Part shown: positions 40,137 to 64,000 of the stretch, piece after piece
Layout: each line of letters begins with the position of its first letter
How positions within the stretch are numbered: position 1 is the stretch's first letter
Virus genome (UHGV): UHGV-0038496
Origin: a virus
DNA length: 64,000 bases
Reading direction: 5' to 3' (one strand)
The notes under the pieces: model-generated
Database searches by the model: none
Told to the model about the DNA's origin: nothing
What the model saw: the letters and a program-made list of their open reading frames with translations, nothing else
Translations under genes and position numbers: made by a program

Positions 40137-40556
40137 TTATAGCGCTTCGTATATTTCATAGATTCGATTTGCAAGGTCGTTACGGTAGCGGAATTTTTCG
40201 TCACGCTTGATCATTAAATCTTTATAGCCATACTCCTTAAGCACTTCATTAACTTTATGGCGGCATACCTGCATATTGTCCTGAGCGTCACCAATAAACT
40301 TGTTGCTGTGGTGCATTGCTTTAATTTCTTCTTCCAGGACCAGGGCAACTACCCGGACCGGATCAAGCTGGTAGGCGTTAACATCCATGCGGCACTGTAG
40401 GCGGCTTTTAACATCGTTTACCGGATATACTGCAACCTCTTCCCCGTCCACGTTGACAATAACCAGCTTGTCGCCGATCTCGAATCCTTTAGCCGCTGGA
40501 CCGTGGCAAAAAGCGTTATCAAAACTATATGCGGGATTGTTTGATTCAATGTTCAT
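40137..40556 (-). CDS. hypothetical protein
   Basis: First ORF of the minus-strand array; terminator downstream. Confidence 0.45.
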   Translation of the reverse strand: MNIESNNPAYSFDNAFCHGPAAKGFEIGDKLVIVNVDGEEVAVYPVNDVKSRLQCRMDVNAYQLDPVRVVALVLEEEIKAMHHSNKFIGDAQDNMQVCRHKVNEVLKEYGYKDLMIKRDEKFRYRNDLANRIYEIYEAL

Positions 40557-40613
40557 GGTGTTTTCCTCTTCGTTGTGTCTTAGTTGGGCCTTTCGGCCCT
40601 TGCAATTATCTTA

Positions 40614-40886
40614 TTACTTGATGCGGCAAAATTCAAGCGTTTTTAATTGATAATCTTCTTCGGCTTGCATCACCACGCAATTGATCATGTGGTCGGCGTT
40701 ATCGAATCCACATTTCACAGCGAAATCATCGGCCCCGCCTTTGTGGTCATGTTCTGCGTTCATAGCCTCTACAAAATGGTACTCAAGATTATTCAAGTAA
40801 GGGCTAGATGTGCCGTCTTCTTTTTCAATAAGATCCCAGATAGCATTAAAACGTTTTTCAGTCGCCTTTTTAATCCACCCTTTCAT
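40614..40886 (-). CDS. hypothetical protein
   Basis: ORF in minus-strand array. Confidence 0.4.
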   Translation of the reverse strand: MKGWIKKATEKRFNAIWDLIEKEDGTSSPYLNNLEYHFVEAMNAEHDHKGGADDFAVKCGFDNADHMINCVVMQAEEDYQLKTLEFCRIK

Positions 40887-41165
40887 AATTTTGCCCCTTA
40901 TTGTGTGAGATATTTACTTCTTCCATTTTCATTATAGCCTATTTGTGGATTGATGCAAGATTGTTTTTTAGTTACAACATTCCAACCCCCTCCAACCGGA
41001 CCGGACCGCCGTCACGGCCTGGACCGGACCACAGGAAACGCAACAGGAAGCATTTTAGGGGCATGAAAAAGGAGGCTATGCACTTGCAAGGCCTCCTCCA
41101 GTTTATCCCGCCTGTGTGGCGATTATGTGGGCTATTTTTGATTTGCAGCTTTCGAGTATAGTCGG

Positions 41166-41471
41166 CTATTCTTCAACAGGGAAAACATCGTTCACGAAAG
41201 CGATGATCGCACCCTGGACCAGGTAGCGCGGGAAGATGGCTTGATCCCCTGCCTCCTGGTGACCGTCTTCAAAGAGGCGATAGATCACCAGATAACTTTT
41301 TTCGTCAACCTTTTGGATCTCGACCTCCAGCCATCGATCATGGTCATGGTCATCACGGAATGCCATCACCTGGCCGCCGTTTTTGTTGGCAATCTCAACC
41401 ATTACAGCGGCATTGTCGATCATGCCGTCAAAGAAGAATAAACCGTTTGCAGGGATAAACATAATAATCAC
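41166..41471 (-). CDS. hypothetical protein
   Basis: ORF in minus-strand array. Confidence 0.4.
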   Translation of the reverse strand: MIIMFIPANGLFFFDGMIDNAAVMVEIANKNGGQVMAFRDDHDHDRWLEVEIQKVDEKSYLVIYRLFEDGHQEAGDQAIFPRYLVQGAIIAFVNDVFPVEE

Positions 41472-41521
41472 TCCTTTCGATTTGGTGGATAGCTGGCGGG
41501 GTATCGTCCCCGCCTGGTTGC

Positions 41522-41812
41522 TTATTTGTTTTCTTTAATCATTTTGCCGATATACTCGATCACTGCTTTCAGCTGGCGGCGATCCTTGATCCAGGCTGGG
41601 AGGTCTTCCAGGTAGCTGCATAAGCTGCCACGGAAAAACATTTCTTCACCCTGTAAGTGATACAGTACTAAAGGCTCGCATTCATTTTCAAGATCCCAGA
41701 TCCAGACTACGGGAACGGCCTTTTCTTCCACCTCGTTCCATGCTTCTTCAATCGTTACGTCCACACCGCGATTATTAGCAAAGTTAATTAGTTTTTTATC
41801 GATGATGCTCAT
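41522..41812 (-). CDS. hypothetical protein
   Basis: ORF in minus-strand array. Confidence 0.4.
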   Translation of the reverse strand: MSIIDKKLINFANNRGVDVTIEEAWNEVEEKAVPVVWIWDLENECEPLVLYHLQGEEMFFRGSLCSYLEDLPAWIKDRRQLKAVIEYIGKMIKENK

Positions 41813-41889
41813 TTTATTTTCCTCCCTTCCTGCTCTTTATGATTAGTTTAATACCCTGGGGACTGCATTGCAAGCCCCTATCTTAAAAT

Positions 41890-42054
41890 TTACATAATTA
41901 CCGCCTTTTTGCCTTCGGCTATTGCGATCCGGTAAACTTCCATTGCTCGCATCCAGTCGCCTCCCTCGTACATCAAACGATAATTGCCGTTTTCCAACAC
42001 TTCATAAATGGCATAGGCGGGAGCGCCATAATCTTTTACTAAATCTGCGTTCAT
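41890..42054 (-). CDS. small hypothetical protein (54 aa)
   Basis: Below ORF-track cutoff; ATG preceded by AAGGGGGAA. Confidence 0.4.
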   Translation of the reverse strand: MNADLVKDYGAPAYAIYEVLENGNYRLMYEGGDWMRAMEVYRIAIAEGKKAVIM

Positions 42055-42364
42055 GATGTTTTCCCCCTTAAGCTACCACGATTGCCACAGCTGCCACTAC
42101 ACCTATTACAACTGCCGCCATAGTCAGAGCTAACACACTGCCTACGAATAAAGTTGCCATAATCTTTTCCTCCCCTTCGTGTTACTGTTTACTGCCTTCA
42201 CCTATAGAATACAGTATGGGGGGCAGTAGTCAACACCTTTTGTAAAAAAAAATCCTGGTAGTCGTTGGCATCGGCGGCACTGACTAACCAGGATGGGCAA
42301 ACATCAAAAATAAGGCATCAAACGGGGCGTAGGACGCAAAAAACTTAGTTCCCTTTGTACTTCT

Positions 42365-42718
42365 TCATAGCTGGATAATATAGCCCTTAGAATCGTATAG
42401 ACGGCGTTCCAGCGCTTCATAATAAAAACCCGCAAGGCTAAAAAGGCAGTGATTAGCACGTAAAACTTCCGCTGCATAAGCCGGATCCGCTTCCATTCGT
42501 TTGATTAGAATATTCTGCCACGCCAGGCGACGGATCTCACCGTTAACGTTACGTTTGATCAAAGTGTCTACTTTGTAGAGTCGTGCGGCTTGAGCGGCTT
42601 TTTTCGCTTTTACCCGCAAGGCCTCTTTTTCGTAGGCTATCACCGCGCCGATGGCCTCATCCTGGGCTTTTGCTGCCAATAGGTCGAAAGTTAACAGGCT
42701 AACGCTTGCACGTTTCAT
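42365..42718 (-). CDS. hypothetical protein
   Basis: ORF in minus-strand array. Confidence 0.4.
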   Translation of the reverse strand: MKRASVSLLTFDLLAAKAQDEAIGAVIAYEKEALRVKAKKAAQAARLYKVDTLIKRNVNGEIRRLAWQNILIKRMEADPAYAAEVLRANHCLFSLAGFYYEALERRLYDSKGYIIQL

Positions 42719-42744
42719 AGTAATTTACCTCTTATGCTGTTGCA

Positions 42745-42972
42745 TTATTTATTATCATTCCGGTAAATAACTTTTCCGTTCCGGTCCATCAGCACGCCGA
42801 TTAATCCGTGGCGTTCGTGGTAGTATTTTTCCATTTTGAAGATTAAAAAATCTTCTGCTTTATCATATTCATAGCAAGAAACGATATAATCAGGGCGAAA
42901 ATATATAAAATGGTTAGCATGTGGATTTTTTTCTTTTGCCTGATTAAATGCTTTGCTGTCAACGATAATCAT
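42745..42972 (-). CDS. hypothetical protein
   Basis: ATG at 42972 preceded by GGGGAG. Confidence 0.4.
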   Translation of the reverse strand: MIIVDSKAFNQAKEKNPHANHFIYFRPDYIVSCYEYDKAEDFLIFKMEKYYHERHGLIGVLMDRNGKVIYRNDNK

Positions 42973-42989
42973 GATCTTTACTCCCCTTG

Positions 42990-43238
42990 TCAACCGTGCA
43001 ATGCCTGCACATTGAAAGCGCCATAGATAGGATCAGCCGGAACATCAATTTTGTATTTTTCGCATTTAAAGACGATATAAACATAGTCTTTTTTGTCCTG
43101 CCTGATCGCACGTTCGACCATTTTCCCATTGTGCACAAATACAACGTAACCGCTTGCGATGTACTGGTTAATGGCGACAGGTATCATAGTACGGCGAACG
43201 TTAGTACCCTTGTCGATTAAAGCGCTTAGATTTTTCAT
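42990..43238 (-). CDS. hypothetical protein
   Basis: ORF in minus-strand array. Confidence 0.4.
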   Translation of the reverse strand: MKNLSALIDKGTNVRRTMIPVAINQYIASGYVVFVHNGKMVERAIRQDKKDYVYIVFKCEKYKIDVPADPIYGAFNVQALHG

Positions 43239-43279
43239 TTTGCTTACTCCTCTTTTCTTGTTGGACTTAAGGCCCTGCC

Positions 43280-43459
43280 TTACAGGGCCATTTTTAACAA
43301 TTCATGCATGTCGAAATTTTCAAGGTTTTTAGCCAGGTAGACGGCTTTTTCTGCCACCTCCTCATCGATATCGTCATCGGGGAGAAGGTCCAGAGCATTT
43401 TCACGTTCACGCATTGCAACATTTACCAGGTTGTTAACTTTTTTGATATTCCGTTTCAT
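43280..43459 (-). CDS. small acidic protein (59 aa)
   Basis: Below ORF-track cutoff; ATG preceded by AGAGGAG. Confidence 0.4.
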   Translation of the reverse strand: MKRNIKKVNNLVNVAMRERENALDLLPDDDIDEEVAEKAVYLAKNLENFDMHELLKMAL

Positions 43460-43536
43460 GATTTAGTACTCCTCTTATTTGGTGTGGTACTTCTTTTATT
43501 TACATCTTACAACAACCTGGCAGCTTGTCAACCTTT

Positions 43537-44067
43537 TTATTTCATCATTTTGCGAATTTTGTTAGCCATTGCCGGGTTATCTAGTACAAGGTTGTAGAGG
43601 TCTTTAAAATTCTCGGCGGCATCCTCATAACCATTCAGGCCATAGCCTTTTACCATTTTGTTAAAACCTGCTTTATCTTCCTCTATAACTTCCTCTTTTT
43701 CTTTGAAAATTAATTCGCCGTTATCATCAACCAGGTTGGCCCCATTGTCAAAAACCAGATTCCCTTTTTCCCCTTTATAAACATGGTCACGGATCACGAC
43801 CTCTTTTAAAGCCTCCTGTATAACATATTTTGCATCATTTGCACAATTGCGATCCGCCTTTTTCAACCAGGCCCCTTTTTCCTTGATATCCGCATCAGGA
43901 TTAAAGGCGACCATAGGGGCAACAACTTCCCCGGCGCAATTCATTATAATTTCTTTCACATAGACGGGATTGATATGCTCAGGGGCTTCAACTTTAAAGC
44001 CGCCAGCGTTTACATTCGCACCGATAACCATCGCCAGGGCAGCTAAAACATATTTGAATGCTTTCAT
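43537..44067 (-). CDS. secreted/periplasmic protein (signal peptide)
   Basis: ATG at 44067 with AAGAGGAAAA RBS; MKAFKYVLAALAMVIGANVNA signal-peptide-like. Confidence 0.5.
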   Translation of the reverse strand: MKAFKYVLAALAMVIGANVNAGGFKVEAPEHINPVYVKEIIMNCAGEVVAPMVAFNPDADIKEKGAWLKKADRNCANDAKYVIQEALKEVVIRDHVYKGEKGNLVFDNGANLVDDNGELIFKEKEEVIEEDKAGFNKMVKGYGLNGYEDAAENFKDLYNLVLDNPAMANKIRKMMK

Positions 44068-44147
44068 GATTTTTTCCTCTTTCAAGTGGTTAATACTGCT
44101 TTCAGTTTTATAATATACTATCCTGGCAAGGTGTCAACACTTTTATC

Positions 44148-44333
44148 TTATTTTGCTTCTCTTTCTCTTCGTGCCAGGTACTTACACCGGGCCAGGGCTA
44201 GATCGAAATCTGCGTAAGCGCTATCACAAGTAGAATGTGTTAAACCTTTTACCATCACCTGGTAAACTTCCGGCCTAACCTCAAGGATCCAGTAGTTGCC
44301 CTCTTCGTAAAGTATTTGAGATTCTTTAATCAT
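44148..44333 (-). CDS. hypothetical protein
   Basis: Small ORF in minus-strand array. Confidence 0.35.
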   Translation of the reverse strand: MIKESQILYEEGNYWILEVRPEVYQVMVKGLTHSTCDSAYADFDLALARCKYLARREREAK

Positions 44334-44381
44334 GGTGTTTACTCCTTTTAGTGCTTTATGTTGTGTTTTTATGTTCTGTCG

Positions 44382-44657
44382 TTATTTATGAGCGCCTTTT
44401 ACGCCAACCAGGCGATTATATTCTAAGTGCTCAACAATTAACCAATCTTTGAAATCGCCGTCACGGTTTAACAGCCGCCAATCTTTGTTGATATTGTATT
44501 TATAGCCATAGCCGCAATTTAACTTAGTAGGATGCACCGCTTTCGCGTTGTGTGCTTCCAGGATGCTCAGGGCTTTTTTAAGAACGTTTGCGGGAGTATT
44601 TTTTTGCATTTTAACGTTCTTGATACCTTTAACGTCGATCATTTTCATGATGGTCAC
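44382..44657 (-). CDS. hypothetical protein
   Basis: ORF in minus-strand array. Confidence 0.4.
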   Translation of the reverse strand: MTIMKMIDVKGIKNVKMQKNTPANVLKKALSILEAHNAKAVHPTKLNCGYGYKYNINKDWRLLNRDGDFKDWLIVEHLEYNRLVGVKGAHK

Positions 44658-44744
44658 CTTTTTGTGTTTTGTTAGTCTTAACTACTTCTTTTAATTTAAT
44701 TGTATATCTTTTAGATTCTGTGTCAACTACTTTTTTCTAACTTT

Positions 44745-44954
44745 TTACCCCTCCCTGGCAAGGCGTTCAAGCCGGATAACCATTCTTGCGACCGCCCTCC
44801 AATCCGCATCATTAAATTCATCCATAGGGGCCGGATTGTTCATTACTTCCAGGTTGTTGATATTGACGTGATACGGTACAGCTTTTACAGGTGCGGCCTT
44901 TGCTGCCGCTTTTCTTGCTTTCGCCGCTTTGCGTTTATCTCTACCCATGCCCAT
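44745..44954 (-). CDS. hypothetical basic protein
   Basis: Lys/Ala-rich N-terminus. Confidence 0.4.
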   Translation of the reverse strand: MGMGRDKRKAAKARKAAAKAAPVKAVPYHVNINNLEVMNNPAPMDEFNDADWRAVARMVIRLERLAREG

Positions 44955-45047
44955 GATTTGTTACTCCTCTGGTTGTTGGCCTTACTTCTTTCTTCATCTT
45001 TATAGTAAGAAAAAGGCCTGCACATTGCAAGCCTTTATGAAGATTTT

Positions 45048-45329
45048 TTAAAACAACGCATGTAGCGGGTAACGGTTACCAGGGTAATAAATCACCTTGA
45101 TCATTTCGTCCGGCAGGAAGAAGTTAAACCATTCGCCAGTGTTATCGTCTGGATCTTCGTCCGCATACATGAAGAAGTAGTCTACAGTTTCCTCGCCAGG
45201 GGCCTGGCCTTCGTTGTATTCTACCCTAGTTAATTTCAACGGGCGATCATTACGGATTATAACCATACCAGCCTGTAAATAACGGGCTTCAAAATTGATA
45301 ACCGCGCCAGGTAATAAGTTAGGGAACAT
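45048..45329 (-). CDS. hypothetical protein
   Basis: ATG at 45329 with AGAGGAG RBS; a C10 homopolymer lies in the 5' leader. Confidence 0.45.
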   Translation of the reverse strand: MFPNLLPGAVINFEARYLQAGMVIIRNDRPLKLTRVEYNEGQAPGEETVDYFFMYADEDPDDNTGEWFNFFLPDEMIKVIYYPGNRYPLHALF

Positions 45330-45636
45330 AATTTTAACTCCTCTGTTGTTGGTGGGGGGGGGGTATTCCCCTTTCAAGAATAAGTATACACACAACAGAC
45401 CACATTGCAAGAAAAATTTTATCAGATGATAACTATTCTCATTTTGCAGGAGGCAACACTTTTGAGTCTGGATCGCTTCGAGGTTGGCAATAGTGGAAGC
45501 GTTGAAATCGATTTTTAGGCACCTGGCAGGGCCTGTAACGGCCTGGAATGGTGGGGGCTTTACACTTGCATATCTTGCTGGTAAATCTTGATGGCGGGGC
45601 TTACAGGAAGGATTTAAAACACAGGAGGCAGGGCCA

Positions 45637-45661
45637 TAAAAAAGGCCGCTGATTTGCGGCC
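45637..45661 (-). terminator. rho-independent terminator (minus strand)
   Basis: GGCCGC-tgattt-GCGGCC hairpin with T-run on minus strand; near-identical to the 40093 terminator. Confidence 0.55.
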
Positions 45662-45682
45662 CTTCATAATAGTTTCACATTG

Positions 45683-45799
45683 TTATCTTTTCGCGTCGTG
45701 TTTATCGCCAGCTATACCGAAGACCTTCCAGCCTACACCGATCCCGATGATACAGATAAACCAGACAACCAGGGCACCAAGCCCGATCAAGATGTGCAT
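45683..45799 (-). CDS. small membrane peptide (38 aa)
   Basis: Below ORF-track cutoff; AGAGGG RBS; hydrophobic. Confidence 0.35.
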   Translation of the reverse strand: MHILIGLGALVVWFICIIGIGVGWKVFGIAGDKHDAKR

Positions 45800-45804
45800 T
45801 GTCG

Positions 45805-46155
45805 TTACCCTCTAAAATAATGTTTTACGATTGCAATAATTACAGGCGCAACATAATAGACCACTGCACCCAAGACGGCCCACGGGGCCAGTTTTTTGGC
45901 GACTGGATAAATGTATTCACCGCACACATAGCACACGATCCAGGCCAACATAATTTTAATCGGTGCATTGTAAAAGATGTTATGCACCCAATCAATATAA
46001 GCGTATGCCATACCGAAAAGCACCGCACCGATAGCGGCCCCACGGCATTTAATTTTACGGGCCGCTTTTTCGGCAGCTTCTCGATCAATGGCGTTCATCT
46101 CTGGGGCCATCTCGTTGACGTCCGGCATACGGTTTAACAGGTCGATGATTCTCAT
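45805..46155 (-). CDS. multi-pass membrane protein
   Basis: Three hydrophobic helices. Confidence 0.45.
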   Translation of the reverse strand: MRIIDLLNRMPDVNEMAPEMNAIDREAAEKAARKIKCRGAAIGAVLFGMAYAYIDWVHNIFYNAPIKIMLAWIVCYVCGEYIYPVAKKLAPWAVLGAVVYYVAPVIIAIVKHYFRG

Positions 46156-46369
46156 TGTTTTTCTTCCTCATGGTTGTTTCCTTCTGCGTCAATTATAGAT
46201 CGCTATAAAGTAAATGCCAACCCCCATAAGTGTTTCAATCGCCAGGATCTCACACCACGTTATCAAGTGGCTGATTGTATCATTGCAAGGTCGAGGCTTG
46301 TCTTTCATTTTCTTATTCCCCTTGTTGGTTGATGATAGGGCCGGACTTCCGGCCCTGGTTGAAATTGTG

Positions 46370-46600
46370 TTACATGATAGTAAGTTTACGGCCTTTGATC
46401 ATGATGTAACCGTGTCCAGCATTGCCCCAGATATCAACGTAGACGCGGCGCATCCGGCCCTCGAAGTTGATCATCCAGTTAGTCGGTAATTTTTTACCGT
46501 AACCGCTTGCAGGCATTTTGGCGTTGACTGGTTTTTCAATCATGACTACATCAAAAAAGTTTTTATAGTCAAATGTTGCAACAGCTGGCATAAGGTCCAT
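46370..46600 (-). CDS. hypothetical protein
   Basis: ORF in minus-strand array. Confidence 0.4.
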   Translation of the reverse strand: MDLMPAVATFDYKNFFDVVMIEKPVNAKMPASGYGKKLPTNWMINFEGRMRRVYVDIWGNAGHGYIMIKGRKLTIM

Positions 46601-46681
46601 GATGTTTCCCCTTCTTACTGTGTGGTTGAGTTCTCTTTATTGATGATCCACTTTCTCATCGTGGACCATCTAAAAGCTAAC

Positions 46682-46876
46682 TCATGCGGCTATTGCAATG
46701 ATTCGTTCTGCTGCCTCAACCGCTTCATAGTCCAGATTATTGTGGTGCGCTACATCCAGGAGGAAAGTTAGTGCATCTTTATAATCTTCGTAGTCGCAAC
46801 GATAAGCCTCTACACCTTCAACAAGAATCGCAATTTTACCAGCTTTTTTCAGGTTTACGATGTTAATGTGTTTCAT
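46682..46876 (-). CDS. hypothetical protein
   Basis: Small ORF in minus-strand array. Confidence 0.4.
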   Translation of the reverse strand: MKHINIVNLKKAGKIAILVEGVEAYRCDYEDYKDALTFLLDVAHHNNLDYEAVEAAERIIAIAA

Positions 46877-46951
46877 GATTTGTCACTCCTTTTAAATTGT
46901 TTACTGCTTTCGATTATCAGTATACTTGTTTTTTCTGATTTGTCAACCTTT

Positions 46952-47179
46952 CTAGACTTCTTCCGGTGCCGCTTTAAAGAATCCTCTAATGATCCGGCCT
47001 CCCCTTACACTTCTTGAAAAAATTGCGTCAACCTCGCGCCTGAATGCCTCTACCCAGATATCGCCCTTACTATCGCTATTCCTAACAATCCAGGCCATAC
47101 GGTAGACCTTGTTATCGAAATTAATCACACCTTTAGATGGTTTAACTCGATTCATGGGGAACTTGATAACGTTGCTCAT
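46952..47179 (-). CDS. hypothetical protein
   Basis: ORF in minus-strand array. Confidence 0.4.
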   Translation of the reverse strand: MSNVIKFPMNRVKPSKGVINFDNKVYRMAWIVRNSDSKGDIWVEAFRREVDAIFSRSVRGGRIIRGFFKAAPEEV

Positions 47180-47843
47180 TTTATTTTCCTCGCTTAGTTG
47201 TTTATTTTTGTAGTGGGAGGTTTATAACCTCCCTCCTCTGTGTTTATAATGCTGCCCGTATATGATGTACCAGATGTTTAAAAGCTCGCGCCAGGTAAAT
47301 TTATCATCTTCGGGCTTTTCTTTATCGTTTTTCATACCCAACCTCATTTTTTGTTATTCAGACCTTTTAACATTTCTTTAATGAAATCTTCCACCCTTTC
47401 ATATTCGTTTGCTTTGTAGTAGTCTTTCATTTTATTTTCCTCGTTTTCTTTCAGCTTCCCCCGGTTTATCCGGTCCTTGTTGCCTCCCTGCATCCTTTCC
47501 TTTCAACTTTATTTTACTGCTTTGTGTTACCTTGTCAACCTTTTTTACTTCTTTCTAGTTTTAGGGCTTTTCGGCTCCCTCGGTCCTTCGGTTAGCTATG
47601 CTTCAAGGCTTTTCCTTTACCCTTCTTTTCCCGCTCCCGGAACTTTCCTTTCTGTTCCCTTTCTTCTCCTTTCGACTATAGAATACCAAACCGGGGGGCC
47701 GTGTCAATACCTTTTTCACAACTTTCTTAAAAATTTTTACTTCCGCATGTTGCTTAAGATAAAACCAACAACCAGGCAGCAGATAACCACAAAGGCCAGG
47801 CCCACAGCGATAAACGGATTCATCAGCATTTCAAGTAACATGA

Positions 47844-48053
47844 TCAGGCCTCCAATACCATAATTTCAAAGCGTGCGACGATAGGGCTAACGTCTACGAG
47901 GCACATCGGATCGACTACGCGATGGATAACGACTAGATGATCATCATGCTTATCGATGTAATAATCCTCGTTATCAATTATTTCGCTTAGGTCATAATAA
48001 CGGCCTTTCTCATAGCGGCCCCGTGCATCATTGGCATAATCACAGTAGACCAT
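47844..48053 (-). CDS. hypothetical acidic protein
   Basis: ATG at 48053 with AGGAGGA RBS. Confidence 0.4.
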   Translation of the reverse strand: MVYCDYANDARGRYEKGRYYDLSEIIDNEDYYIDKHDDHLVVIHRVVDPMCLVDVSPIVARFEIMVLEA

Positions 48054-48431: not shown

Positions 48432-48445
48432 AATCGGCGCTCCTG

Positions 48446-55086: not shown

Positions 55087-55087
55087 A

Positions 55088-55300: not shown

Positions 55301-55308
55301 GATGCACC

Positions 55309-56012: not shown

Positions 56013-56203
56013 TTTTCAGGCACCTCACGTCCTACATATTTTAAGAAACTGCACAAACCACCCAGCATAATAGCTGAATATGAAGCACGTACCCATGCAG
56101 GGAAGTCTGCATAATGTGCAGCGCTAATAGCTACAAAACCTACTGCCGCAAACATACCGATAAGAAGCAGGACAGTAAATAAGATTTTCTGTAACTCACT
56201 CAT
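56009..56203 (-). CDS. small membrane protein
   Basis: Two hydrophobic helices. Confidence 0.4.
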   Translation of the reverse strand: MSELQKILFTVLLLIGMFAAVGFVAISAAHYADFPAWVRASYSAIMLGGLCSFLKYVGREVPEK

Positions 56204-56214
56204 TGTACGTACTC

Positions 56215-56373
56215 CTAGTGAAAAATGATTCCAGCTTCATACATAGAGCTGATGATAATAAACAGCAGAATCAGCGTAATGAAGAACACTTTGTTAGCTG
56301 TTGACAGCTTCATAAGGCTGATAAGAAACACAACCAAAAGGCAAAGTGTTACAGCTATACCTAAGACTTCCAT
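56215..56373 (-). CDS. small membrane peptide (52 aa)
   Basis: Below ORF-track cutoff; GAGGAGG RBS. Confidence 0.4.
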   Translation of the reverse strand: MEVLGIAVTLCLLVVFLISLMKLSTANKVFFITLILLFIIISSMYEAGIIFH

Positions 56374-56394
56374 CGGAGAACCTCCTCGATCATT

Positions 56395-56613
56395 TTAACT
56401 CTGGTAGCAAAGTGCATCTTCCCAGTCTACAAAATCGTTGCAAGCTGCATCAAATGCACGTTCACCATGCACACCAGAGTAATAAACAGGGTCCTCTACA
56501 ATATTGGCAAAGCGACTGTGAATTTCAATAAGACGCAAGTCCGATGCCATTTGCTGAGGGTAATTCGTTGTGATCATATGACACATATGTGCTGCATGTT
56601 CTTGAATATTCAT
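56395..56613 (-). CDS. hypothetical protein
   Basis: ORF in minus-strand array. Confidence 0.4.
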   Translation of the reverse strand: MNIQEHAAHMCHMITTNYPQQMASDLRLIEIHSRFANIVEDPVYYSGVHGERAFDAACNDFVDWEDALCYQS

Positions 56614-56624
56614 TTTTCGTCCCC

Positions 56625-56852
56625 TCAGTAAGAATAATAACCTGGTATAGAATCGAAAGCTGGCTCGACTTCAAACAAACCTTGCGCTATACCATCTGCA
56701 ATGTAGAGTTCCTCTTCAAGTTCCTCTTCATTGTAGAGGCAAGCATTGTACTTGATATCAGTACAACCCTCCATCGGAGCAAGCAAATACCAGCCTGCCC
56801 ATTCAGCCCACGGACCCTGAACATCCGCTGCTACTCTAATACGATACAGCAT
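56625..56852 (-). CDS. hypothetical protein
   Basis: ORF in minus-strand array. Confidence 0.4.
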   Translation of the reverse strand: MLYRIRVAADVQGPWAEWAGWYLLAPMEGCTDIKYNACLYNEEELEEELYIADGIAQGLFEVEPAFDSIPGYYSY

Positions 56853-56944
56853 AGTGTGTGCTCCTTCTCTTTTGTATGGGATGTACTGTACCAGATTCCA
56901 CGCCTGTTGTCAATCAGTTTTTAACTGGTGTGGGGATCAAATAC

Positions 56945-57136
56945 TTACTTGTTGTTAAGGAGTTCCAAAACTTTCTGTTTTACTTCATCAAGGTTTGTTG
57001 ATTCAAAAACTGTGCGATATTCCCAACTTTGCCCATAGGAATAACTGCAATCCCCGTAACACCATTGCTCGACTTGATAGTATTCAAGGAATTGGTGCTG
57101 TCGGACTATGATACCATCTCGATTAAAAATTACCAT
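56945..57136 (-). CDS. hypothetical protein
   Basis: Small ORF. Confidence 0.35.
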   Translation of the reverse strand: MVIFNRDGIIVRQHQFLEYYQVEQWCYGDCSYSYGQSWEYRTVFESTNLDEVKQKVLELLNNK

Positions 57137-57192
57137 AATGCGTCACTCTCTGTTGGTTTATGTGCTGTATTATACACCATAGTTTCCTGGTG

Positions 57193-57654
57193 TCAACCCT
57201 TTTTGCAGTACTCCACTACGATCACTCTTATATCAGGAGTCGTGAGGTTGATGATATTCTCTACATGCTCCCACATAAGACCTCCTATACCGCACCCAAT
57301 CTTAGGGATGTAGAACGGTAACGACATACCTTCGAATACCTCATTGACTTGCTCAAAACCTTTCATGATTGAAGAGTAATCAGCATTAGGTCCCGGTCGG
57401 AATTGAGTATACATATTAATACCGTATACAATCCTGTTCTTGGCAAAATGCTCCCAACAAGAGAGTGTGCCCAGCTTGTCTGGATCACCATAAGCAGTCA
57501 TTTTGTCAGTTTCCAACGCTTGAGGAAACTCCCTGACAATTTGTCTTGCTATACCTGCACCCATTGTGTGGAAGCAGTTGCAACCGTGGATTAGATGACC
57601 AGCCCCGCTCTTAAAGATAGAGATTAAATCTCCATTTACAGTACCGATAATCAT
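57193..57654 (-). CDS. macro-domain-like protein (putative ADP-ribose binding/hydrolase)
   Basis: GDLISIFKSGAGHLIHGCNCFHTMGAGIARQI and IPKIGCGIGGL resemble macro-domain glycine-rich motifs. Confidence 0.5.
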   Translation of the reverse strand: MIIGTVNGDLISIFKSGAGHLIHGCNCFHTMGAGIARQIVREFPQALETDKMTAYGDPDKLGTLSCWEHFAKNRIVYGINMYTQFRPGPNADYSSIMKGFEQVNEVFEGMSLPFYIPKIGCGIGGLMWEHVENIINLTTPDIRVIVVEYCKKG

Positions 57655-57666
57655 AGTGCCCCTCTT

Positions 57667-58122
57667 TTAGCGATCTCCGTACTCTGCTGCGTGTTTGTGC
57701 AGGTAGTCTAACACAACCTTTAACTCGTTTTCAAGGTCTTTTAAAAACTCGATAGAAGTAAAATGATTGATGCGGTAGCAATCAGAGATACAAAACTCTG
57801 GATAGCAAGCCCCTTCCATCCCGACATGCCAGCAACAACGAGCCAGCATCTTGAATGCTTCCTCGCTCCAATCCAGGTCAACTTTACCACAACTTTTCTC
57901 ACCGTTGTCAACTGCTCTCAGAAACTCACACAGGCAGTTTTGCAGTGTCTCGACCTTCATCAGGAAGTGTTCAAAATGGTCGTTGTGCAAACGAACAACA
58001 CGCTCCGCTTTTTTGATGCACAGTTCGAACACGCAAGGCAGCTTTTTGTTCAGTTCTATGTGGTAGCTGATTGCGTAGTAGTCATCACCGTACCATTTGC
58101 CACCGTCACTGCCGAAAATCAT
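57667..58122 (-). CDS. hypothetical Cys-rich protein
   Basis: ORF overlapping downstream stop. Confidence 0.4.
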   Translation of the reverse strand: MIFGSDGGKWYGDDYYAISYHIELNKKLPCVFELCIKKAERVVRLHNDHFEHFLMKVETLQNCLCEFLRAVDNGEKSCGKVDLDWSEEAFKMLARCCWHVGMEGACYPEFCISDCYRINHFTSIEFLKDLENELKVVLDYLHKHAAEYGDR

Positions 58123-58556
58123 AATGCACCCCCATAAACGTCATGAGTTTTGCAATACTGGATTGCTTTAAGGATATTGCAAAGTTCTTTGTGCAGCAAT
58201 TTTATTTGATTCATCTGGTAAGGAGAAAAATACAGCCGTTTCTGACAATCAGCTAAAGTGAAAGTATCATCGCTACGATCACCATCATCGCAGACCTCGA
58301 AAGTGCAATTCCCGTGCATGTGGCCTTTGGCGTGAGAGTTGTCTAACCAGACGCGATCACTGCATTTAATGTTGTTATCTAAAGCAAACATCCAGCGCTC
58401 AATCATATCGCGGATAAGATCGTATTTGGCATACATTTCGTCAGGAGTTACGTCACCATCCCCTGGTGGATAGTGATTCTCGTAGTGTAAATCTGGACAG
58501 ACAGTGTAGCATAAGTCTCTTGCTTGTCCTGATAACCAGTGAACTTCTCTACACAC
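58119..58556 (-). CDS. hypothetical protein (possibly frameshifted continuation of a short upstream ORF)
   Basis: GTG start without good RBS; a 57-codon ORF with good RBS starts at 58623 in another frame. Confidence 0.35.
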   Translation of the reverse strand: MCREVHWLSGQARDLCYTVCPDLHYENHYPPGDGDVTPDEMYAKYDLIRDMIERWMFALDNNIKCSDRVWLDNSHAKGHMHGNCTFEVCDDGDRSDDTFTLADCQKRLYFSPYQMNQIKLLHKELCNILKAIQYCKTHDVYGGAL

Positions 58557-58711
58557 CAGTCAATACCAAAAAGTTCTCTGTCAACAAGACCGCCAAATTC
58601 GTGTTTCAGACAAAGTGCCATGATGTGTATCTCCGAAAATAAAAAAGGCTAACAATTTCTGTTAGCCTTTAATGTACTCTTTTTTGTTGGTGTTGTCAAG
58701 TGGTAAAACTG

Positions 58712-58957
58712 TTAATTTTTTCCCTTCAACCCAACACAGATTCTTGACGGCTCTTTACCGTACCACATCAGGTAAAGTCCGTTAATGCGACCCTGTTTCG
58801 TATATGATTCTTTCCTGAGCTTCTTGTAGTACCGCGTTTCCATAACTGACATTTTAGAATACCTGTCATAAAGGAAGAGGTACAAAGGCCAGCCCTTAGC
58901 GTCCTTAATACACTTACTTAAAAATGCCTTGTTGCGCTTAATTAGTTTTCTTTTCAT
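58712..58957 (-). CDS. hypothetical basic protein
   Basis: Lys/Arg-rich. Confidence 0.4.
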   Translation of the reverse strand: MKRKLIKRNKAFLSKCIKDAKGWPLYLFLYDRYSKMSVMETRYYKKLRKESYTKQGRINGLYLMWYGKEPSRICVGLKGKN

Positions 58958-58977
58958 GAACTTAATACCTTAGCTTA

Positions 58978-59448
58978 TTAGTTGAACACTTTAGTGGCTA
59001 TGTAAAAATCTGGGCCATGAACTTTTGGAGGCTCACTGATACAAAGTATAGCTGAACCTACCTTAATGTAGTAGAACAGACTAAACTCACCTTTGAACTT
59101 ACGCCACTGTGCAACACAAGTTTGCTCATAACGATCAAGAATCTTGAAATAATCATCCAGACAAGCATCTTCTGGGATAATTATTGTAGGCATAAACTTG
59201 TTGTGACCGCAGCAACAGTTCATAGTCTGCAAACCTGCTGCCCACAGACTGACCAGCCGTTTAGCCATACACTTATCAACTGCGATAGTGCGTTGTTCAG
59301 TACCATCCATCCGTTTTGTACGAAGACGTTTAGGAACTTCCAGAATAACATTAGGGTGCTTAGCACCCTTCACTTTCTTGTTGTAAGATTTGCATTTACA
59401 CATGTGGTGTACCTCTGCTTTGTGGGAAGGCATCAGGCTAAAGCCCAT
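58978..59448 (-). CDS. hypothetical Cys/His-rich protein
   Basis: HHMCKCK ... CCCGHNK. Confidence 0.4.
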   Translation of the reverse strand: MGFSLMPSHKAEVHHMCKCKSYNKKVKGAKHPNVILEVPKRLRTKRMDGTEQRTIAVDKCMAKRLVSLWAAGLQTMNCCCGHNKFMPTIIIPEDACLDDYFKILDRYEQTCVAQWRKFKGEFSLFYYIKVGSAILCISEPPKVHGPDFYIATKVFN

Positions 59449-60071
59449 TCAAGGTGCTCTTTCATTTTGTCACCCCAACCGTTGACAACAGCGTCAACAC
59501 GCGTCCAATCCGTGCAACTCTGATCGTAAGGAGTATCCATCAGAATAGTGCTTCCGGTGTGAGAATCTTTCCGAGAAGGAAATGCTTCTATGCGGTCATC
59601 GATGAGCACGTCCCACTCAAAATTTATCTTCTCCTGCATGTCTTTCACACGGATCAGTTCATTCTCGTGCCTGTCCCCGTGGCCTCCCCATTTTATCTCC
59701 AGAAAAGGACACCATCTGTTGATGAAATCAAATTTATTGACATGCTGTTTGTGGCTTAAAGACCCAGTTAAAAACCAGATGATGGCTCCTTCGTCATGTA
59801 GCCACTTAATAGTGTCAACAGCACCAGGCAACGGCTCAAGGTTGTCATAGATGCCGCCTAACTTCCAGAAAAGCCTTAAGTCTCTCTTGTAGCATTCAGG
59901 AAAGTATTTTGTTAGGTCGTAGTAGAAACGCATCTGTGGATTCTGTGGCGGCAGAAAGACGTTAATGGGCAGACCAGTCCTTTTCTGACACCAGTCTAAC
60001 CATGCACGACCAGAATCAACAAAAGTAAGGTCCACATCTACAGCCACCACCTTGCCAATAAACTTTTTCAT
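59433..60071 (-). CDS. HAD-superfamily phosphatase (5'-nucleotidase-like), paralog of 14700-15302
   Basis: VDVDLTF motif I, YDLTKYFPE, VLIDDR; ATG at 60071 with GAGAGG RBS. Confidence 0.5.
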   Translation of the reverse strand: MKKFIGKVVAVDVDLTFVDSGRAWLDWCQKRTGLPINVFLPPQNPQMRFYYDLTKYFPECYKRDLRLFWKLGGIYDNLEPLPGAVDTIKWLHDEGAIIWFLTGSLSHKQHVNKFDFINRWCPFLEIKWGGHGDRHENELIRVKDMQEKINFEWDVLIDDRIEAFPSRKDSHTGSTILMDTPYDQSCTDWTRVDAVVNGWGDKMKEHLEWALA

Positions 60072-60336: not shown

Positions 60337-60398
60337 GATGGTAGTCCTTATCTTTCTCTTAGTGGTCGCATTATATCCTAAAATTTTTCTCTTGTCAA

Positions 60399-60423
60399 TA
60401 AAAAAGGCCACCCGAAGGTGGCC
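60399..60423 (-). terminator. rho-independent terminator (minus strand)
   Basis: GGCCACC-cgaa-GGTGGCC hairpin with T-run on minus strand. Confidence 0.6.
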
Positions 60424-60486: not shown

Positions 60487-61740
60487 TTAGAAGGGGATAT
60501 CATCATCAAAGGCCCACTTTGTCGGATTAGGTTCCCCCTCTTCGATAGGTGGAGCATCTACAGTATTCTGCTGAGGCTCCGGTTGTGGTTCTGGTTTCTG
60601 TTCCGGCACAGGTTCCTGTTTGGCTTCCTGTTTAGGAACAGCAGTTGTGCTGCCAGTTTTGATCCACTTATACAAAGGTTCAGCCAGATTTACCAGAACG
60701 TTATTGGCTTCAGCTTTGATATCCTTGAACAGACAATCAAGATTCTGTAGGTTGTTGATGTTAACACGGCGACATGCGTTAAGTACAGCGTTACCTACAG
60801 TTGCCCCAACGGCATCCTCTTCATTCCCTGTTGCCTTAGCATACTCCATTTTGAGGTCAATTGTCAAGGTGTGGAGTTGCATTGCGATACCTAAATCTGT
60901 CGTACTGCCCGGATTCAATCCACGATCCAGAAGGATTTGCATTGCATTAAGAGCATGACCAGTGCTCACACCAATAGGGTCGTAAGTTGATTTACGAGGT
61001 GTTTTGTTTTCCAGTGGTGGATATGCTTTAAAACCACTTAAAACGTTACCTGCTTTATCACATACAGCTGCAACACGACCACCTACAACCAGTTCTTTCA
61101 GCTGATTCGGGTTGTTGACAACCATCACACCGACACCGATCTTCTGGTCATCAACGGTTACCGATTTACCATCGATAGCTGTGATAGTGCCATAGATGCG
61201 TAAAACGTCATTAGCCCCTTTCTGAGCAGGTTTTTGTTGGTTGCCTTGTGGTTGTTTACCCTGACCCTGTTTAGGCTGTTGTTGGCCTTTCTGCTGCGCT
61301 TTAGGAGCACTTGCAGGTACTTCACCAGTCCCTAACACAACAATTTTAGCCAGAGAGCCTTTGTAATAGGTCTTACCGTTGTACTCGTTGGATTTGAGAG
61401 GGATGTTAACAATCCAGCCCGGTACTACAGTTTCCCATTTGTCATTAATCTTAATGCTAACAGAATCCTGATGACCTGGTTTCAGGAGTTTATCACCCAT
61501 GCTAACCCACATCTCTTCACCACCCTGGATCAGTTTGTCGTTCTCATCCAGTTCAGCGATCAGAAGAGCAATCGTATGCGAGGATTCGATTTTCTTACCT
61601 TGCCACGTAGTGGTTTTGATACCAGTTTCAGGATCAGCCCCTTTGATAGGTTTGATACTCACCCGTTTGATGATACCGTGAGCCATGAGGATAGTTTCAC
61701 GAGGATTCATCGGGTTTTTAAATTCTTGTACAACGCTCAT
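60487..61740 (-). CDS. SSB-like protein with host-SSB-type C-terminal tip (DDDIPF)
   Basis: C-terminus FDDDIPF identical to the E. coli SSB tip; Q/P/G-rich linker; AAGGAGA RBS. Confidence 0.55.
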   Translation of the reverse strand: MSVVQEFKNPMNPRETILMAHGIIKRVSIKPIKGADPETGIKTTTWQGKKIESSHTIALLIAELDENDKLIQGGEEMWVSMGDKLLKPGHQDSVSIKINDKWETVVPGWIVNIPLKSNEYNGKTYYKGSLAKIVVLGTGEVPASAPKAQQKGQQQPKQGQGKQPQGNQQKPAQKGANDVLRIYGTITAIDGKSVTVDDQKIGVGVMVVNNPNQLKELVVGGRVAAVCDKAGNVLSGFKAYPPLENKTPRKSTYDPIGVSTGHALNAMQILLDRGLNPGSTTDLGIAMQLHTLTIDLKMEYAKATGNEEDAVGATVGNAVLNACRRVNINNLQNLDCLFKDIKAEANNVLVNLAEPLYKWIKTGSTTAVPKQEAKQEPVPEQKPEPQPEPQQNTVDAPPIEEGEPNPTKWAFDDDIPF

Positions 61741-62132: not shown

Positions 62133-62228
62133 TGTAGGAAGTCTCCGATTAGTTGAACAACGTATTAAAGGGAGATACTATTTTAGCACCTCCCTCAGAG
62201 AATAACAATACTGATTGTCTATACAGTG

Positions 62229-62489
62229 TTACACTGGGCGTGCAAAACCCCACAGGCCGTCACCAAGCACACCTACGATCAGATCGCCTTCATCATCACG
62301 GATTTCAAACATACCTGGTAACAGGATTTCAGCATCAATGCCGAACAGTTGTGTGTGTTTGTAAGTAGGAGTTACAACTTTATACTCTTTACCTACTGTC
62401 AGGTTTTCACATGCTTCCGCACCAGGACCTAACTCATCGAATACGATTTTGTCACCTTCACTGAATACATGGTCTGTTAAGCGTTTCAT
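62229..62489 (-). CDS. hypothetical protein
   Basis: ORF in minus-strand array. Confidence 0.4.
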   Translation of the reverse strand: MKRLTDHVFSEGDKIVFDELGPGAEACENLTVGKEYKVVTPTYKHTQLFGIDAEILLPGMFEIRDDEGDLIVGVLGDGLWGFARPV

Positions 62490-62806
62490 ACTGGGTAGCC
62501 TTCGTCAAGTTGATAAAACTCTGCAACCGTTTTATCGAATGCAGGGACCCCGATATTGTTGACCAGGTGCCAGATAATCATATCTTTACCTGTTTCAAGA
62601 ATATCTATCTTGCGCCACAAGGCATACATGCCACCAGGACCCGCATAGATTGGAAGCTCATCACCCGCCTCTTCGAGGTAAGAGGCAAGTAATTCATCTT
62701 CCAAAGTGATCTCGTTTTGCGAGTTCATTACGCGGCGTAAGATTTTCAGAAAGTCTTCAGGATCCATATTTTCGTAATCAATCCTCATCAGCACCTCCAA
62801 TTGCAT
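62486..62806 (-). CDS. hypothetical protein
   Basis: ORF; start may be the internal ATG at 62788. Confidence 0.4.
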   Translation of the reverse strand: MQLEVLMRIDYENMDPEDFLKILRRVMNSQNEITLEDELLASYLEEAGDELPIYAGPGGMYALWRKIDILETGKDMIIWHLVNNIGVPAFDKTVAEFYQLDEGYPV

Positions 62807-63176
62807 TCTTTAAATCTTCCATCGCATCACCCACTTTGAGGATGATAACGTCGTTTTTAGCCCGTGGGTCGTGATCGTTAAGGCTGCACATTTTCTTGAC
62901 TGTGCAGATCACCAGATACGGACCTTGTTGTGTGACCATCACGTTGACCTTACAATCAAGGTCTGCTTTTGCACCTTTACGGAAATTGAACGGCTGTAAA
63001 CGGTCAAACAGATCAGCTTTTGGATTGTCATCTGTACGTACCAAAGCCATATCTTCAAGCAGGAATTGCTGACCGTTAAGGTTAAGCACAGCCACACCGT
63101 CACGGACTGTGATAACACCGAATGAATCGTCAAATCCAGTAAGGTCGAAGAGGTCTAAATCCCAGATTTTTTTCAT
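62778..63176 (-). CDS. hypothetical protein
   Basis: ORF in minus-strand array. Confidence 0.4.
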   Translation of the reverse strand: MKKIWDLDLFDLTGFDDSFGVITVRDGVAVLNLNGQQFLLEDMALVRTDDNPKADLFDRLQPFNFRKGAKADLDCKVNVMVTQQGPYLVICTVKKMCSLNDHDPRAKNDVIILKVGDAMEDLKNAIGGADED

Positions 63177-63188
63177 CTTGTGGCACCT

Positions 63189-63449
63189 TTAAAAGCTACG
63201 GAAGAGTTCTGTGTAAGTAGTTTCGTAGACTTCACCTTCTTCTACGATTTCCAACTCTGTTGTTGTGCAGTAAACATCATCACCATGCCCATCGATCAGG
63301 ATACATTCTTTGCCCAGTTGAGGATCATCTTCGTCATCCAGATTGATAATAGCATCATAGATGACACCTGGTTCACAATCGCAGAATGCACAGTCTTCTT
63401 CAAGGCAGAAACGTTTTACTTTAGCTTTGACACGTTGTGCTTTCATCAT
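63189..63449 (-). CDS. acidic Cys-containing small protein (paralog pair member)
   Basis: ILIDGHGDDVYCTTTELEIVEEG; similar to the next gene. Confidence 0.4.
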   Translation of the reverse strand: MMKAQRVKAKVKRFCLEEDCAFCDCEPGVIYDAIINLDDEDDPQLGKECILIDGHGDDVYCTTTELEIVEEGEVYETTYTELFRSF

Positions 63450-63507
63450 GGCTCTCCTTTTTTGTTAACGGGGCTATTATACATAACCCCGCTGTACTTG
63501 TCAATAG

Positions 63508-63765
63508 TTAATAGTGTTCAGGTTTTACAATAATCACATCTTCGAAAGTGCAATATACATCCTCTCCTTCATCATCTTGGAAGAGGAGACATTGCAGACC
63601 TTCTTCGGCGTAACGAATATCTTCTTCAGTGAGGTGAATACCAAGTTGTTCACAAAGTGCAATTAGCGGATTTTCACACATTTTCGCTTCATAGACTGCA
63701 CCAGCAGTGCAATCACGGAAAGTTTCATCAGAAATCAGTTTGTCTTCTTTGATCATAATTTTCAT
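63508..63765 (-). CDS. acidic Cys-containing small protein (paralog pair member)
   Basis: ATG at 63765 overlapping upstream stop (ATGA); LLFQDDEGEDVYCTFEDVIIVKPE. Confidence 0.4.
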   Translation of the reverse strand: MKIMIKEDKLISDETFRDCTAGAVYEAKMCENPLIALCEQLGIHLTEEDIRYAEEGLQCLLFQDDEGEDVYCTFEDVIIVKPEHY

Positions 63766-64000
63766 TTGGCTTCTCCAACTGGAATTCTTAACTGGAATAT
63801 TGCGTTCTCTACCCAACCACGGAGATAAATATACTCTACAACCTCCTCTGTTGTCAAGTCTTTTATTTTCTCATCAATGCCAACATCGTTGTGGTAGTCC
63901 CAGTCGGCATCAATTTCCCACAATTGGTACACAGATGTACCATCTTCTTCGTAACGCTGCCGTACGCAAAAAGATCCTTCAAAACCTGCAACCCGCTCGT
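63762..64000 (-). CDS. hypothetical acidic protein, 5'-partial (start beyond window end)
   Basis: Open minus-strand frame to window edge; stop at 63762-63764. Confidence 0.35.
   Translation of the reverse strand, partial: ERVAGFEGSFCVRQRYEEDGTSVYQLWEIDADWDYHNDVGIDEKIKDLTTEEVVEYIYLRGWVENAIFQLRIPVGEAK

Follow-up and report, generated by a model that had tools for sequence, protein, structure and literature searches.

The sequence considered here (the window) is a 64-kb stretch of the viral genome UHGV-0038496, drawn from a 140.7-kb metagenome contig (ENA ERZ27287477 k141_617802), and our subject is the leftward block of small genes at its right-hand end, together with the sigma70-type promoter sites between those genes. 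Positions 1-36 kb hold rightward nucleotide-metabolism and replication genes, the interval from 37.6 to 40.1 kb is gene-free, and from 40137 on the genes run leftward; GC skew is negative across 40-64 kb, and its change of sign is in line with the change in gene direction. Open reading frame (ORF) prediction guided by Shine-Dalgarno sequences called 64 leftward ORFs within 40137-63765 (minus strand), with a median length of 82 amino acids and 78% of the sequence coding, and the public annotation of the source contig agrees with ours almost gene by gene. A first-pass annotation, made from the letters of the sequence, had described about 55 leftward genes of mostly under 130 amino acids. The size is borne out, as 52 of the 64 ORFs are shorter than 130 amino acids, and the count was of the right order, although slightly low. 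The block is syntenic with gp159-gp219 of phage rV5 and runs on beyond the end of the window, while its downstream end is closed by a strong intrinsic terminator (40094-40119, minus strand; 10-bp stem and T run) located 18 nt past the final stop codon. A scan of the window found no tRNA gene, and no Rfam family was matched at gathering thresholds in any of the 64 kb.

When compared by megablast and blastn with 50,697 phage records, the window showed similarity in patches only, covering 7-20% of the query with identities of 75-86%, and almost all hits were to rV5-like coliphages (Vequintavirinae). Since coverage of the window by any one INPHARED record is at most about 7-20% (77-83% identity), the comparative work was done on two IMG/VR contigs, L002 and L003, and one Logan contig, L026, which run collinear with the block and have a nucleotide identity to it of about 84-90%.

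The block is rich in near-consensus promoter sites on the strand of its own genes. We scored as strong any site with at least 10 of 12 matches to TTGACA-N16-18-TATAAT, and took 200 dinucleotide-preserving shuffles as the null. The minus strand of 40137-64000 has 23 strong sites, against 3.85 +/- 1.88 in the shuffles (maximum 12), and the plus strand has four. The pattern TTGACA-N15-18-TAnnnT, counted over 40-64 kb, occurs 21 times on the minus strand, each time with a perfect TTGACA, and once on the plus strand. Twenty of the 23 strong sites precede a start codon in the same orientation, with 18-63 nt (in one case 187 nt) from the -10 hexamer to the ATG; the other three (60867, 43751 and 42993) are intragenic and are probably chance matches, being about as many as chance would give. 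A site of at least 9/12 is present in 22 of the 38 intergenic gaps of at least 40 bp, sites with a variant -35 hexamer (TTGCAA, TTGCAT or TTGATC) are present in five more, and the gaps without a promoter mostly hold stable hairpins. With about eight weaker sites (TTGCAA, TTGCAT or TTTACT) added, the total comes to about 30 promoters for about 64 ORFs. The earlier claim of more than 20 sigma70 promoters thus stands, and the claim that most gaps contain one is largely right, the hairpin-bearing gaps excepted. The claim that most genes have a promoter of their own does not hold, as only about half could, and the interval 53.8-55.5 kb is one six-gene operon behind a single promoter.

In sequence, these sites have all the features of promoters for host sigma70 RNA polymerase in its unmodified form, and are predicted to act as such. 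Late-promoter motifs (T4 TATAAATA and rV5 TggTAaAAtA) were sought in the window and none was found upstream of any gene; the sole TATAAATA match, at 44504, is intragenic. Terminators precede few of the promoters, the clear intrinsic ones being at 40094-40119, 45012-45036, 48186-48204 (within the block, minus strand), 58644-58670 and 60400-60423. This paucity suggests nested transcripts, in which most promoters would add to read-through from upstream and expression would build up along the block.

Two classes of promoter can be distinguished. Class A comprises 17-18 copies, between 40.9 and 52.8 kb, of a stereotyped cassette of about 60-105 bp. The 17 copies tabulated and aligned for a consensus give the order A-tract / G / TTGACA / 16 nt / TAnnnT / 5-6 nt / pyrimidine / GAAAGnAG(T/A)A. 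The A/T tract already noted upstream of the promoters in the first-pass annotation is seen as A at positions -9 to -4 from the -35 hexamer in 10-16 of the 17 copies, which places an A5-6 tract at about -44 to -39, and a G lies immediately 5' of the hexamer in 11. The spacer is 16 nt in 16 copies, TTGACA is perfect in 11, and the -10 hexamer retains A2 and T6. The last element of the cassette, which we call the box, is conserved position by position (G15 A16 A17 A15 G17 N A14 G13 T10 A15; n = 17), has a pyrimidine directly 5' of it in 16 copies, and begins 6-7 nt past the -10 hexamer, also in 16 copies. Because the first base of the box falls at the canonical start position (7-8 nt from the -10 hexamer), in a Y-1/R+1 context, we infer from the sequence that class A transcripts would start at the G of GAAAG. 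The box is followed by a 25-45 nt A/C-rich leader, a Shine-Dalgarno sequence and the ATG. The minus strand of the block contains seven instances of GAAAGnAGTA, where about 0.24 would be expected per strand, and 15 matches to a looser class A pattern; the looser pattern has no match on the plus strand and a single one in the rest of the window. The exact motif is multi-copy in one small clade only among the IMG/VR contigs (5, 4 and 1 copies), with all other contigs giving single, chance-level matches.

In the direction of transcription (all on the minus strand), the class A zone begins with a class A-like promoter at 52780-52807 (TTGATC-16-TATTCT), with a GAAGG box and a hairpin in the spacer. 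P52317 (52290-52317) reads TTGACA-16-TATTAT, then T-GAAAGCAGTA, and is followed by further class A copies P51566 (51539-51566), P51266 (51239-51266), P50749 (50722-50749) and P50067 (50040-50067). The promoter P49602 (49574-49602), TTGACA-17-TAAACT, has its -35 hexamer within the loop of a two-tier hairpin at 49575-49630. Class A copies with TTTACT as the -35 hexamer (48092-48119), P47707 (47680-47707), P47538 (47511-47538) and P46946 (46919-46946) come next, and then a promoter TTGGCA-17-TATAAT (46192-46220), which overlaps a 39-codon ORF and is kept in L002 and L003. The class A copy at 45383-45410 has a TTGCAA -35 hexamer. At 45002-45030 there is a composite terminator/promoter, in which the TTGCAA -35 hexamer lies within an 11-bp terminator stem (45012-45036) and a GAAAGAAGTA box is found downstream. 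The remaining class A copies are P44726 (44699-44726), P44137 (44110-44137), P43531 (43504-43531) and one at 42206-42233 with a TTGACT -35 hexamer, predicted to drive a 30-codon micro-ORF. A weak TTGCAA-17-TAAACT site lies inside a GGGG/CCCC hairpin at 41845-41873, and the series ends with a class A-like TTGCAT-16-TATAAT promoter at 40931-40958, which has a GGAAGAAGTA box.

The leader behind P47707 is of some interest in itself. Positions 47420-47700 (minus strand), behind the tandem strong promoters P47707 and P47538, form a purine-rich, untranslated stretch (74% A+G) with 15 GGA triplets where about four would be expected; it is conserved in the relatives and has no Rfam match. It may be a leader bound by a protein, or else a noncoding RNA.

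Class B comprises eight copies between 55.5 and 63.9 kb, with spacers of 17-18 nt and no box. A GC hairpin over the -10 hexamer, or a terminator adjoining the promoter, is found in six of the eight, compared with 4 of 17 in class A and 35% in control windows. The copies, again on the minus strand, lie at 63828-63857 (TTGACA-18-TATATT); 63476-63504 (12/12, with a CGGGG/CCCCG hairpin over the -10 hexamer); 62180-62208 (weak, 9/12, with a hairpin over the -10 hexamer); 60370-60398 (12/12, with the terminator 60400-60423 directly before it, a PeSL-like composite); 58671-58699 (P58699); 57169-57196 (P57196, 12/12); 56885-56913; and 55535-55563 (P55563, with a TGn motif and a GGGGA/TCCCC hairpin over the -10 hexamer), the last of these heading the six-gene operon. 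P58699, TTGACA-17-TACATT, is followed directly by the intrinsic terminator at 58644-58670, which has an 11-bp stem, and the combined unit (58644-58699) is nearly invariant in three phages, with a single substitution, in the spacer of L003. The hairpins over class B promoters, like the terminator of P58699, would fold only in RNA that reads through from upstream. Transcripts initiated at P58699 should escape its terminator, as their predicted start, at about 58664, lies within the 5' arm. Upstream read-through would thus terminate at this unit and locally started transcripts would not, an insulator design that has been described for subclasses of the PeSL elements discussed below (PMC2839356).

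Promoters of both classes are found at orthologous positions in the relatives. Over 21 orthologous promoter pairs from two relatives, identity is 100% for the -35 hexamer, 94% for the -10 hexamer, 94% for the box, 89% for the spacer and 84% for the discriminator, while DNA flanking the promoters, compared in the same ungapped register, has a much lower identity than the hexamers. The genes between the promoters are far from constant. With identities of about 88%, the window, L002, L003 and L026 already differ by many whole-gene insertions, deletions and replacements, and by one displacement. At P50749, L002 has an additional 64-codon ORF with its own promoter (L002 12530-12730), placed exactly between two TTGACA elements, so that homology to the window ends at the first -35 hexamer and restarts at the second promoter. 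At the orthologue of P57196, L002 has a DHFR-like gene (L002 3180-3700), followed by a degraded second promoter copy with the -35 hexamer lost and CAGAAT as its -10 hexamer. At L003:12992, which is orthologous by position to P50749, the 5' untranslated region (UTR) matches that of the paralogue P52317 at 96% identity and that of P50749 itself at 78%, and the UTR of L002:18755 is 89% identical to the cassette L002:9925 in the same genome as against 73% to its positional orthologue. UTRs closer to paralogues than to orthologues, and insertions between promoter copies, point to recombination or gene conversion between cassettes.

Much of this layout is familiar from rV5. Collinear megablast pieces at 83% identity connect 40137-57653 of the window with 106618-120128 of rV5, and the rV5 leftward unit (NC_011041) has the same position and orientation as our block, sharing with it the first gene, the Tk.4-like macrodomain "phosphatase," the 417-residue gp209 and many small hypothetical genes. 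The rV5 unit likewise has annotated intergenic Sigma70-type promoters with A-rich upstream tracts and a gene-free region just outside the block. For gp159-gp219, eight Sigma70-type promoters are annotated and our scan finds 17 strong minus-strand sites, compared with about 30 promoters in the window; over the whole rV5 genome 33 such promoters have been reported, with "genes 10-1-238-164" described as one transcription unit (Kropinski et al. 2013, PMC3606486). The two blocks are nevertheless far from identical. Of the part of the block that served as query (40137-60000), just 7% aligns, with an identity of about 83%, and most of the small genes differ. The window's promoters are more numerous and more uniform, and the strict 16-nt spacer is barely visible in rV5.

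The cassettes also resemble the PeSL (promoter-early stem-loop) elements of T4-type phages (RB49/phi1, PST/T4 and nt-1/KVP40; Arbiol 2010, PMC2839356; Comeau 2014, PMC4122927), which are repeats of about 100 bp made up of an AT-rich tract, a near-consensus sigma70 promoter, a Shine-Dalgarno sequence and an ATG. Here too the cassettes lie among small uncharacterized ORFs of what appears to be a hyperplastic region, with examples of insertions between two copies and of degraded half copies and chimeras. Class B has in addition the G-run/C-run hairpins over or beside the promoter seen in PeSL subclasses, and fits the PeSL definition reasonably well. The PeSL phages belong to another phage subfamily, however, and in them the stem-loop acts as a terminator and recombination between cassettes yields mini-circles. 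We do not file class A as PeSL, and regard it as a lineage-specific variant that would be functionally analogous.

The early promoters of T4 offer a second comparison, as they too are many, near-consensus and of host type, with UP-like A-tracts and extra conserved positions. They combine UP, -35, TGn and -10 elements with extra consensus regions, and drive small nonessential genes right after infection (Hinton 2010, PMC2988021). The promoters of the window differ from them in having TTGACA rather than GTTTAC as the -35 element, in the rarity of TGn (four sites) and in the 16-nt spacer, and no homologue of Alt, Mod, AsiA or MotA was seen in the window. A third comparison is with the early promoters of T5, such as P N25, which from the work of Gentz and Bujard in 1985 and of Kammerer and colleagues in 1986 reportedly have an A-block near -43 and a conserved, functional initial transcribed region. 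Strong sigma70 promoter, A-block and conserved initial region are found in both, although the downstream sequences differ and we claim no descent. How the initial transcribed sequence affects N25 is treated in PMC12464699.

Based on these data, we are fairly confident that the block forms the leftward arm of accessory genes in a myovirus of the Vequintavirinae type (rV5-like), with about 30 promoters for host sigma70 RNA polymerase and a cassette-type turnover of genes. The cassettes have all that an unmodified host sigma70 holoenzyme needs, a hallmark of genes expressed immediately on DNA entry, and by analogy with the T4 early promoters (PMC2988021) and the rV5 annotation (PMC3606486) the genes of the block would be expressed at that time. 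The A-tract resembles the proximal UP-element subsite recognized by the alpha C-terminal domain; that subsite was reportedly defined by Estrem and colleagues in 1999 as AAAAAARNR at -46 to -38. The repeated cassettes would serve as portable homology, and the block would be a hyperplastic region in which self-expressing gene cassettes come and go. As a promoter-rich layout is already annotated in rV5 and has been familiar for many years in T4 and T5, the architecture is a known one and is ordinary apart from the uniform class A cassette. That cassette, together with the exchange between loci, makes the block a modestly interesting variant.

Several observations weigh against parts of this picture. 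In the rightward nucleotide-metabolism and replication block (1-36600), strong sigma70-like sites number 32 on the plus strand, mostly with 17-18 nt spacers and none with a GAAAG box, and seven on the minus strand; since it is equally dense, in line with what Kropinski et al. reported across the rV5 genome, promoter density cannot mark the leftward block as "immediate early." A 16-nt spacer is not the optimal one for sigma70. The box at +1 is weakly recognizable in rV5, as a faint GAAGG/AAAGG remnant, and class A, at 4 of 17 against 35% in controls, is without the stem-loop that defines PeSL and has the start-site box instead. Lastly, about five of 12 indel junctions fall in cassettes, which by our estimate make up about 38% of the intergenic DNA, so that there is no enrichment over the intergenic null and cassette-mediated recombination rests on three or four explicit examples.

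The lack of enrichment is what would be seen if the cassettes were alike through independent selection for strong promoters and played no part in recombination, turnover being due instead to illegitimate or homing-endonuclease exchange in intergenic DNA. Several indels are promoter-less at both ends (56389/56015, 45818/45664 and 44339/44353), and the relatives do hold inserted HNH genes. We consider this possibility doubtful. The likeness between cassettes reaches positions without a known promoter role (spacers, discriminators and 45-nt leaders), the greater identity of two UTRs to paralogues than to orthologues is a signature of gene conversion, and duplicated promoter copies bound two of the insertions.

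As for the box, we prefer the view that it is an aid to promoter escape, because tight contacts tend to make escape rate-limiting and the initial transcribed sequence strongly modulates promoter output (PMC5961368). A conserved initial transcribed sequence may thus help RNA polymerase to leave the very tight class A promoters. Two other candidates were rejected: a sigma70-dependent pause element (-10-like) within the box, as no recurring TAnnnT is found there, and an operator formed by the inverted repeat of the -10 hexamer and the box end (TACT/AGTA), as few copies have it.

The box might also work on the RNA, as a shared 5' end of early mRNA that acts as a stability or translation signal or as the target of a phage RNA-binding protein or nuclease. 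Every class A transcript is predicted to begin with it, and related A/C-rich leaders follow; 5' UTRs have been swapped as whole units; and in rV5 there are often 5'-proximal GC hairpins at the same position, which suggests selection on the mRNA 5' end. The box of the window is unstructured and purine-rich, however, only two of the 17 leaders have a 5' hairpin, and Rfam gives no match. We think such a role rather unlikely, but it is compatible with one in promoter escape and the two are not mutually exclusive.

We find it harder to credit that class A is a phage-regulated class, in which the box or the A-tract binds a phage activator or repressor that switches about 17 promoters, whether for delayed-early or middle expression or as a shut-off operator. 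The box is as well conserved as the -10 hexamer (94%), it is limited to one contiguous sub-block that a gene-free regulatory region divides from class B, and its exact motif is multi-copy in this small clade only; moreover, the adjacent rightward block of rV5 encodes a Srd-like anti-sigma candidate and an annotated "transcriptional regulator." Even so, the perfect TTGACA of 11 of the 17 copies and the A2 and T6 kept in the -10 hexamer imply that no activator is needed, the box is non-palindromic, its position at the expected start in a Y-1/R+1 context fits a start-site or initial-transcribed element, and no DNA-binding protein was recognized in the block with Pfam, PHROG or NCBIfam. More improbable still is that a dedicated phage factor recognizes the box and either co-regulates these promoters or catalyzes a site-specific exchange of promoter-plus-ORF cassettes, which would make the sub-block an integron-like array in a virulent phage. 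That the promoter matches arise by chance, or from the composition of an A-rich coding strand, can be dismissed, for although a loose scan (at least 9/12, both strands) exceeds its shuffles modestly, at 56 against 40.9 +/- 6.4, and three of the 23 strong sites are intragenic, it is refuted by the excess of strong sites over the shuffles and over the opposite strand, by the fixed distance of 20 of them from start codons, and by hexamers that are 94-100% conserved in relatives whose flanks match much less.

The hairpins in the promoter-less gaps are likely to be transcript-processing, stabilizing or attenuating elements. Like the GA-rich leader, they are not known RNAs, given the absence of Rfam matches. 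Four copies belong to a family of two-tier stem-loops, GCyUUUUAGAUGGCCC...GGGCCAUCAAUAAAG, with a conserved internal loop, UUUUAGAUGG...CCAUCAAUAAAG, and a stability of up to -34 kcal/mol (z = -6.3), a value reached by the first copy (51795-51838), which marks a homology junction in relatives. The others lie at 49153-49198, at 46628-46683, where the inner stem covaries, and around the -35 hexamer of P49602 as noted above, all on the minus strand, and copies of the family are found at homology junctions between relatives. Their shape may resemble that of the RNase III processing sites in T7 early mRNA.

The class A and class B zones are divided by a gene-free region of 983 bp (52712-53694), which contains about five iterons of the form ACTAT(A/C)AATCACCGTnnGTTACTAT (53096-53290), a set of three 32-nt repeats (53368-53536), and hairpins of high GC content. 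An antisense promoter close to consensus, TTGACA-16-TG-TATTAT (plus strand, 52990-53017), is directed into the iterons. The region is 84-88% conserved in relatives, which have an insertion of about 0.8 kb at window positions of about 52840-52956; in L026 the insertion is an HNH endonuclease gene (L026 1620-2309), within the iteron region and absent from the window. We regard 52712-53694 as a candidate replication origin or regulatory hub. A plus-strand ORF at 53340-53552 was rejected as a gene, as it has no Shine-Dalgarno sequence, is of low complexity and is frameshifted in L002. The other gene-free stretch, between the two gene blocks (37600-40136), comprises about 2.5 kb without a credible ORF, has a GC content of 38%, and is full of short direct and inverted repeats, among them GACATAATAACGCTG, present in two exact and two diverged direct copies and one exact inverted copy. 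By position it matches the "non-coding" box on the rV5 genome map, and it is adjoined by an HNH_3 homing endonuclease gene (36884-37594, minus strand).

For the proteins of the block, which are almost all small, PHROG gave about 49 family hits, and all but one of the families are annotated "unknown function." Pfam identifies a protein of 88 residues with a ParE-like toxin domain (44382-44648, minus strand; PF24732, 38.8 bits against a cut-off of 24.4), a T7 gene 1.1-like protein (48210-48431), a DUF7249 protein (50937-51182), an NT5C-type 5'-nucleotidase of 212 residues (59433-60071, minus strand) and a macrodomain protein of 153 residues (57193-57654, minus strand; Pfam Macro, PHROG "phosphatase"). 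The macrodomain resembles that of DarG (NCBIfam NF048014, E = 9e-11), although the score of 41.6 bits is far under the full-length cut-off of 250, and NCBIfam gave nothing else for the proteins of the block. As orphan antitoxin-like ADP-ribosylglycohydrolases are established phage counter-defenses against DarTG (PMC11825919), a counter-defense role for the macrodomain protein is plausible.

The 417-residue protein (60487-61740, minus strand), the counterpart of rV5 gp209, belongs to a family limited to rV5-like, CR3-like and Certrevirus-type phages. It has predicted beta-barrel domains and ends in an SSB-type C-terminus, DFDDDIPF, which is the best conserved motif of the family and is near-invariant down to 27% identity. 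This sequence is that of the C-terminal tip of Escherichia coli SSB. An AlphaFold model (pLDDT 75) has two beta-rich domains, one helical domain and disordered Q/P-rich linkers. The best PDB matches to the model in Foldseek are all OB-fold proteins, but weak (E at least 0.016), and a sequence search of the PDB gave no match. The protein is possibly a phage SSB that would plug into the host SSB interaction network. In some members of the family (P0014, P0035, P0045, P0048 and P0074) the sequence runs about 15 residues beyond DDDIPF (APIGLQY..R.IYAL; alignment columns 487-507), which suggests either loss of a stop codon or the presence of a second conserved module at the C-terminus.

The first-pass annotation had taken the block for a host-takeover and anti-defense region transcribed early by host polymerase. 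The sigma70 properties of the promoters, the synteny with rV5 and the many small uncharacterized proteins are in keeping with the early, host-driven part of this proposal. The promoter density is not specific to the block, however, and the presence of an SSB-like protein, a nucleotidase and origin-like iterons argues for a mixed accessory and replication arm rather than a pure takeover block. On anti-defense content the profile searches that were called for (Pfam, PHROGs and NCBIfam) returned the one DarG-like macrodomain hint and no other recognized host-takeover or anti-defense family.

For an uncultured rV5-like phage, the analysis provides a promoter map of about 30 sites with predicted start nucleotides. 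The 17 near-isogenic strong promoters with a common start-site box make a compact natural series for studying the part of the initial transcribed sequence in escape from consensus promoters. More broadly, the exchanges seen among these cassettes suggest that regulatory-cassette exchange in the style of PeSL may reach past the T4-like phages, and such exchange would help explain the fast turnover of small accessory genes, the usual pool of counter-defense genes.

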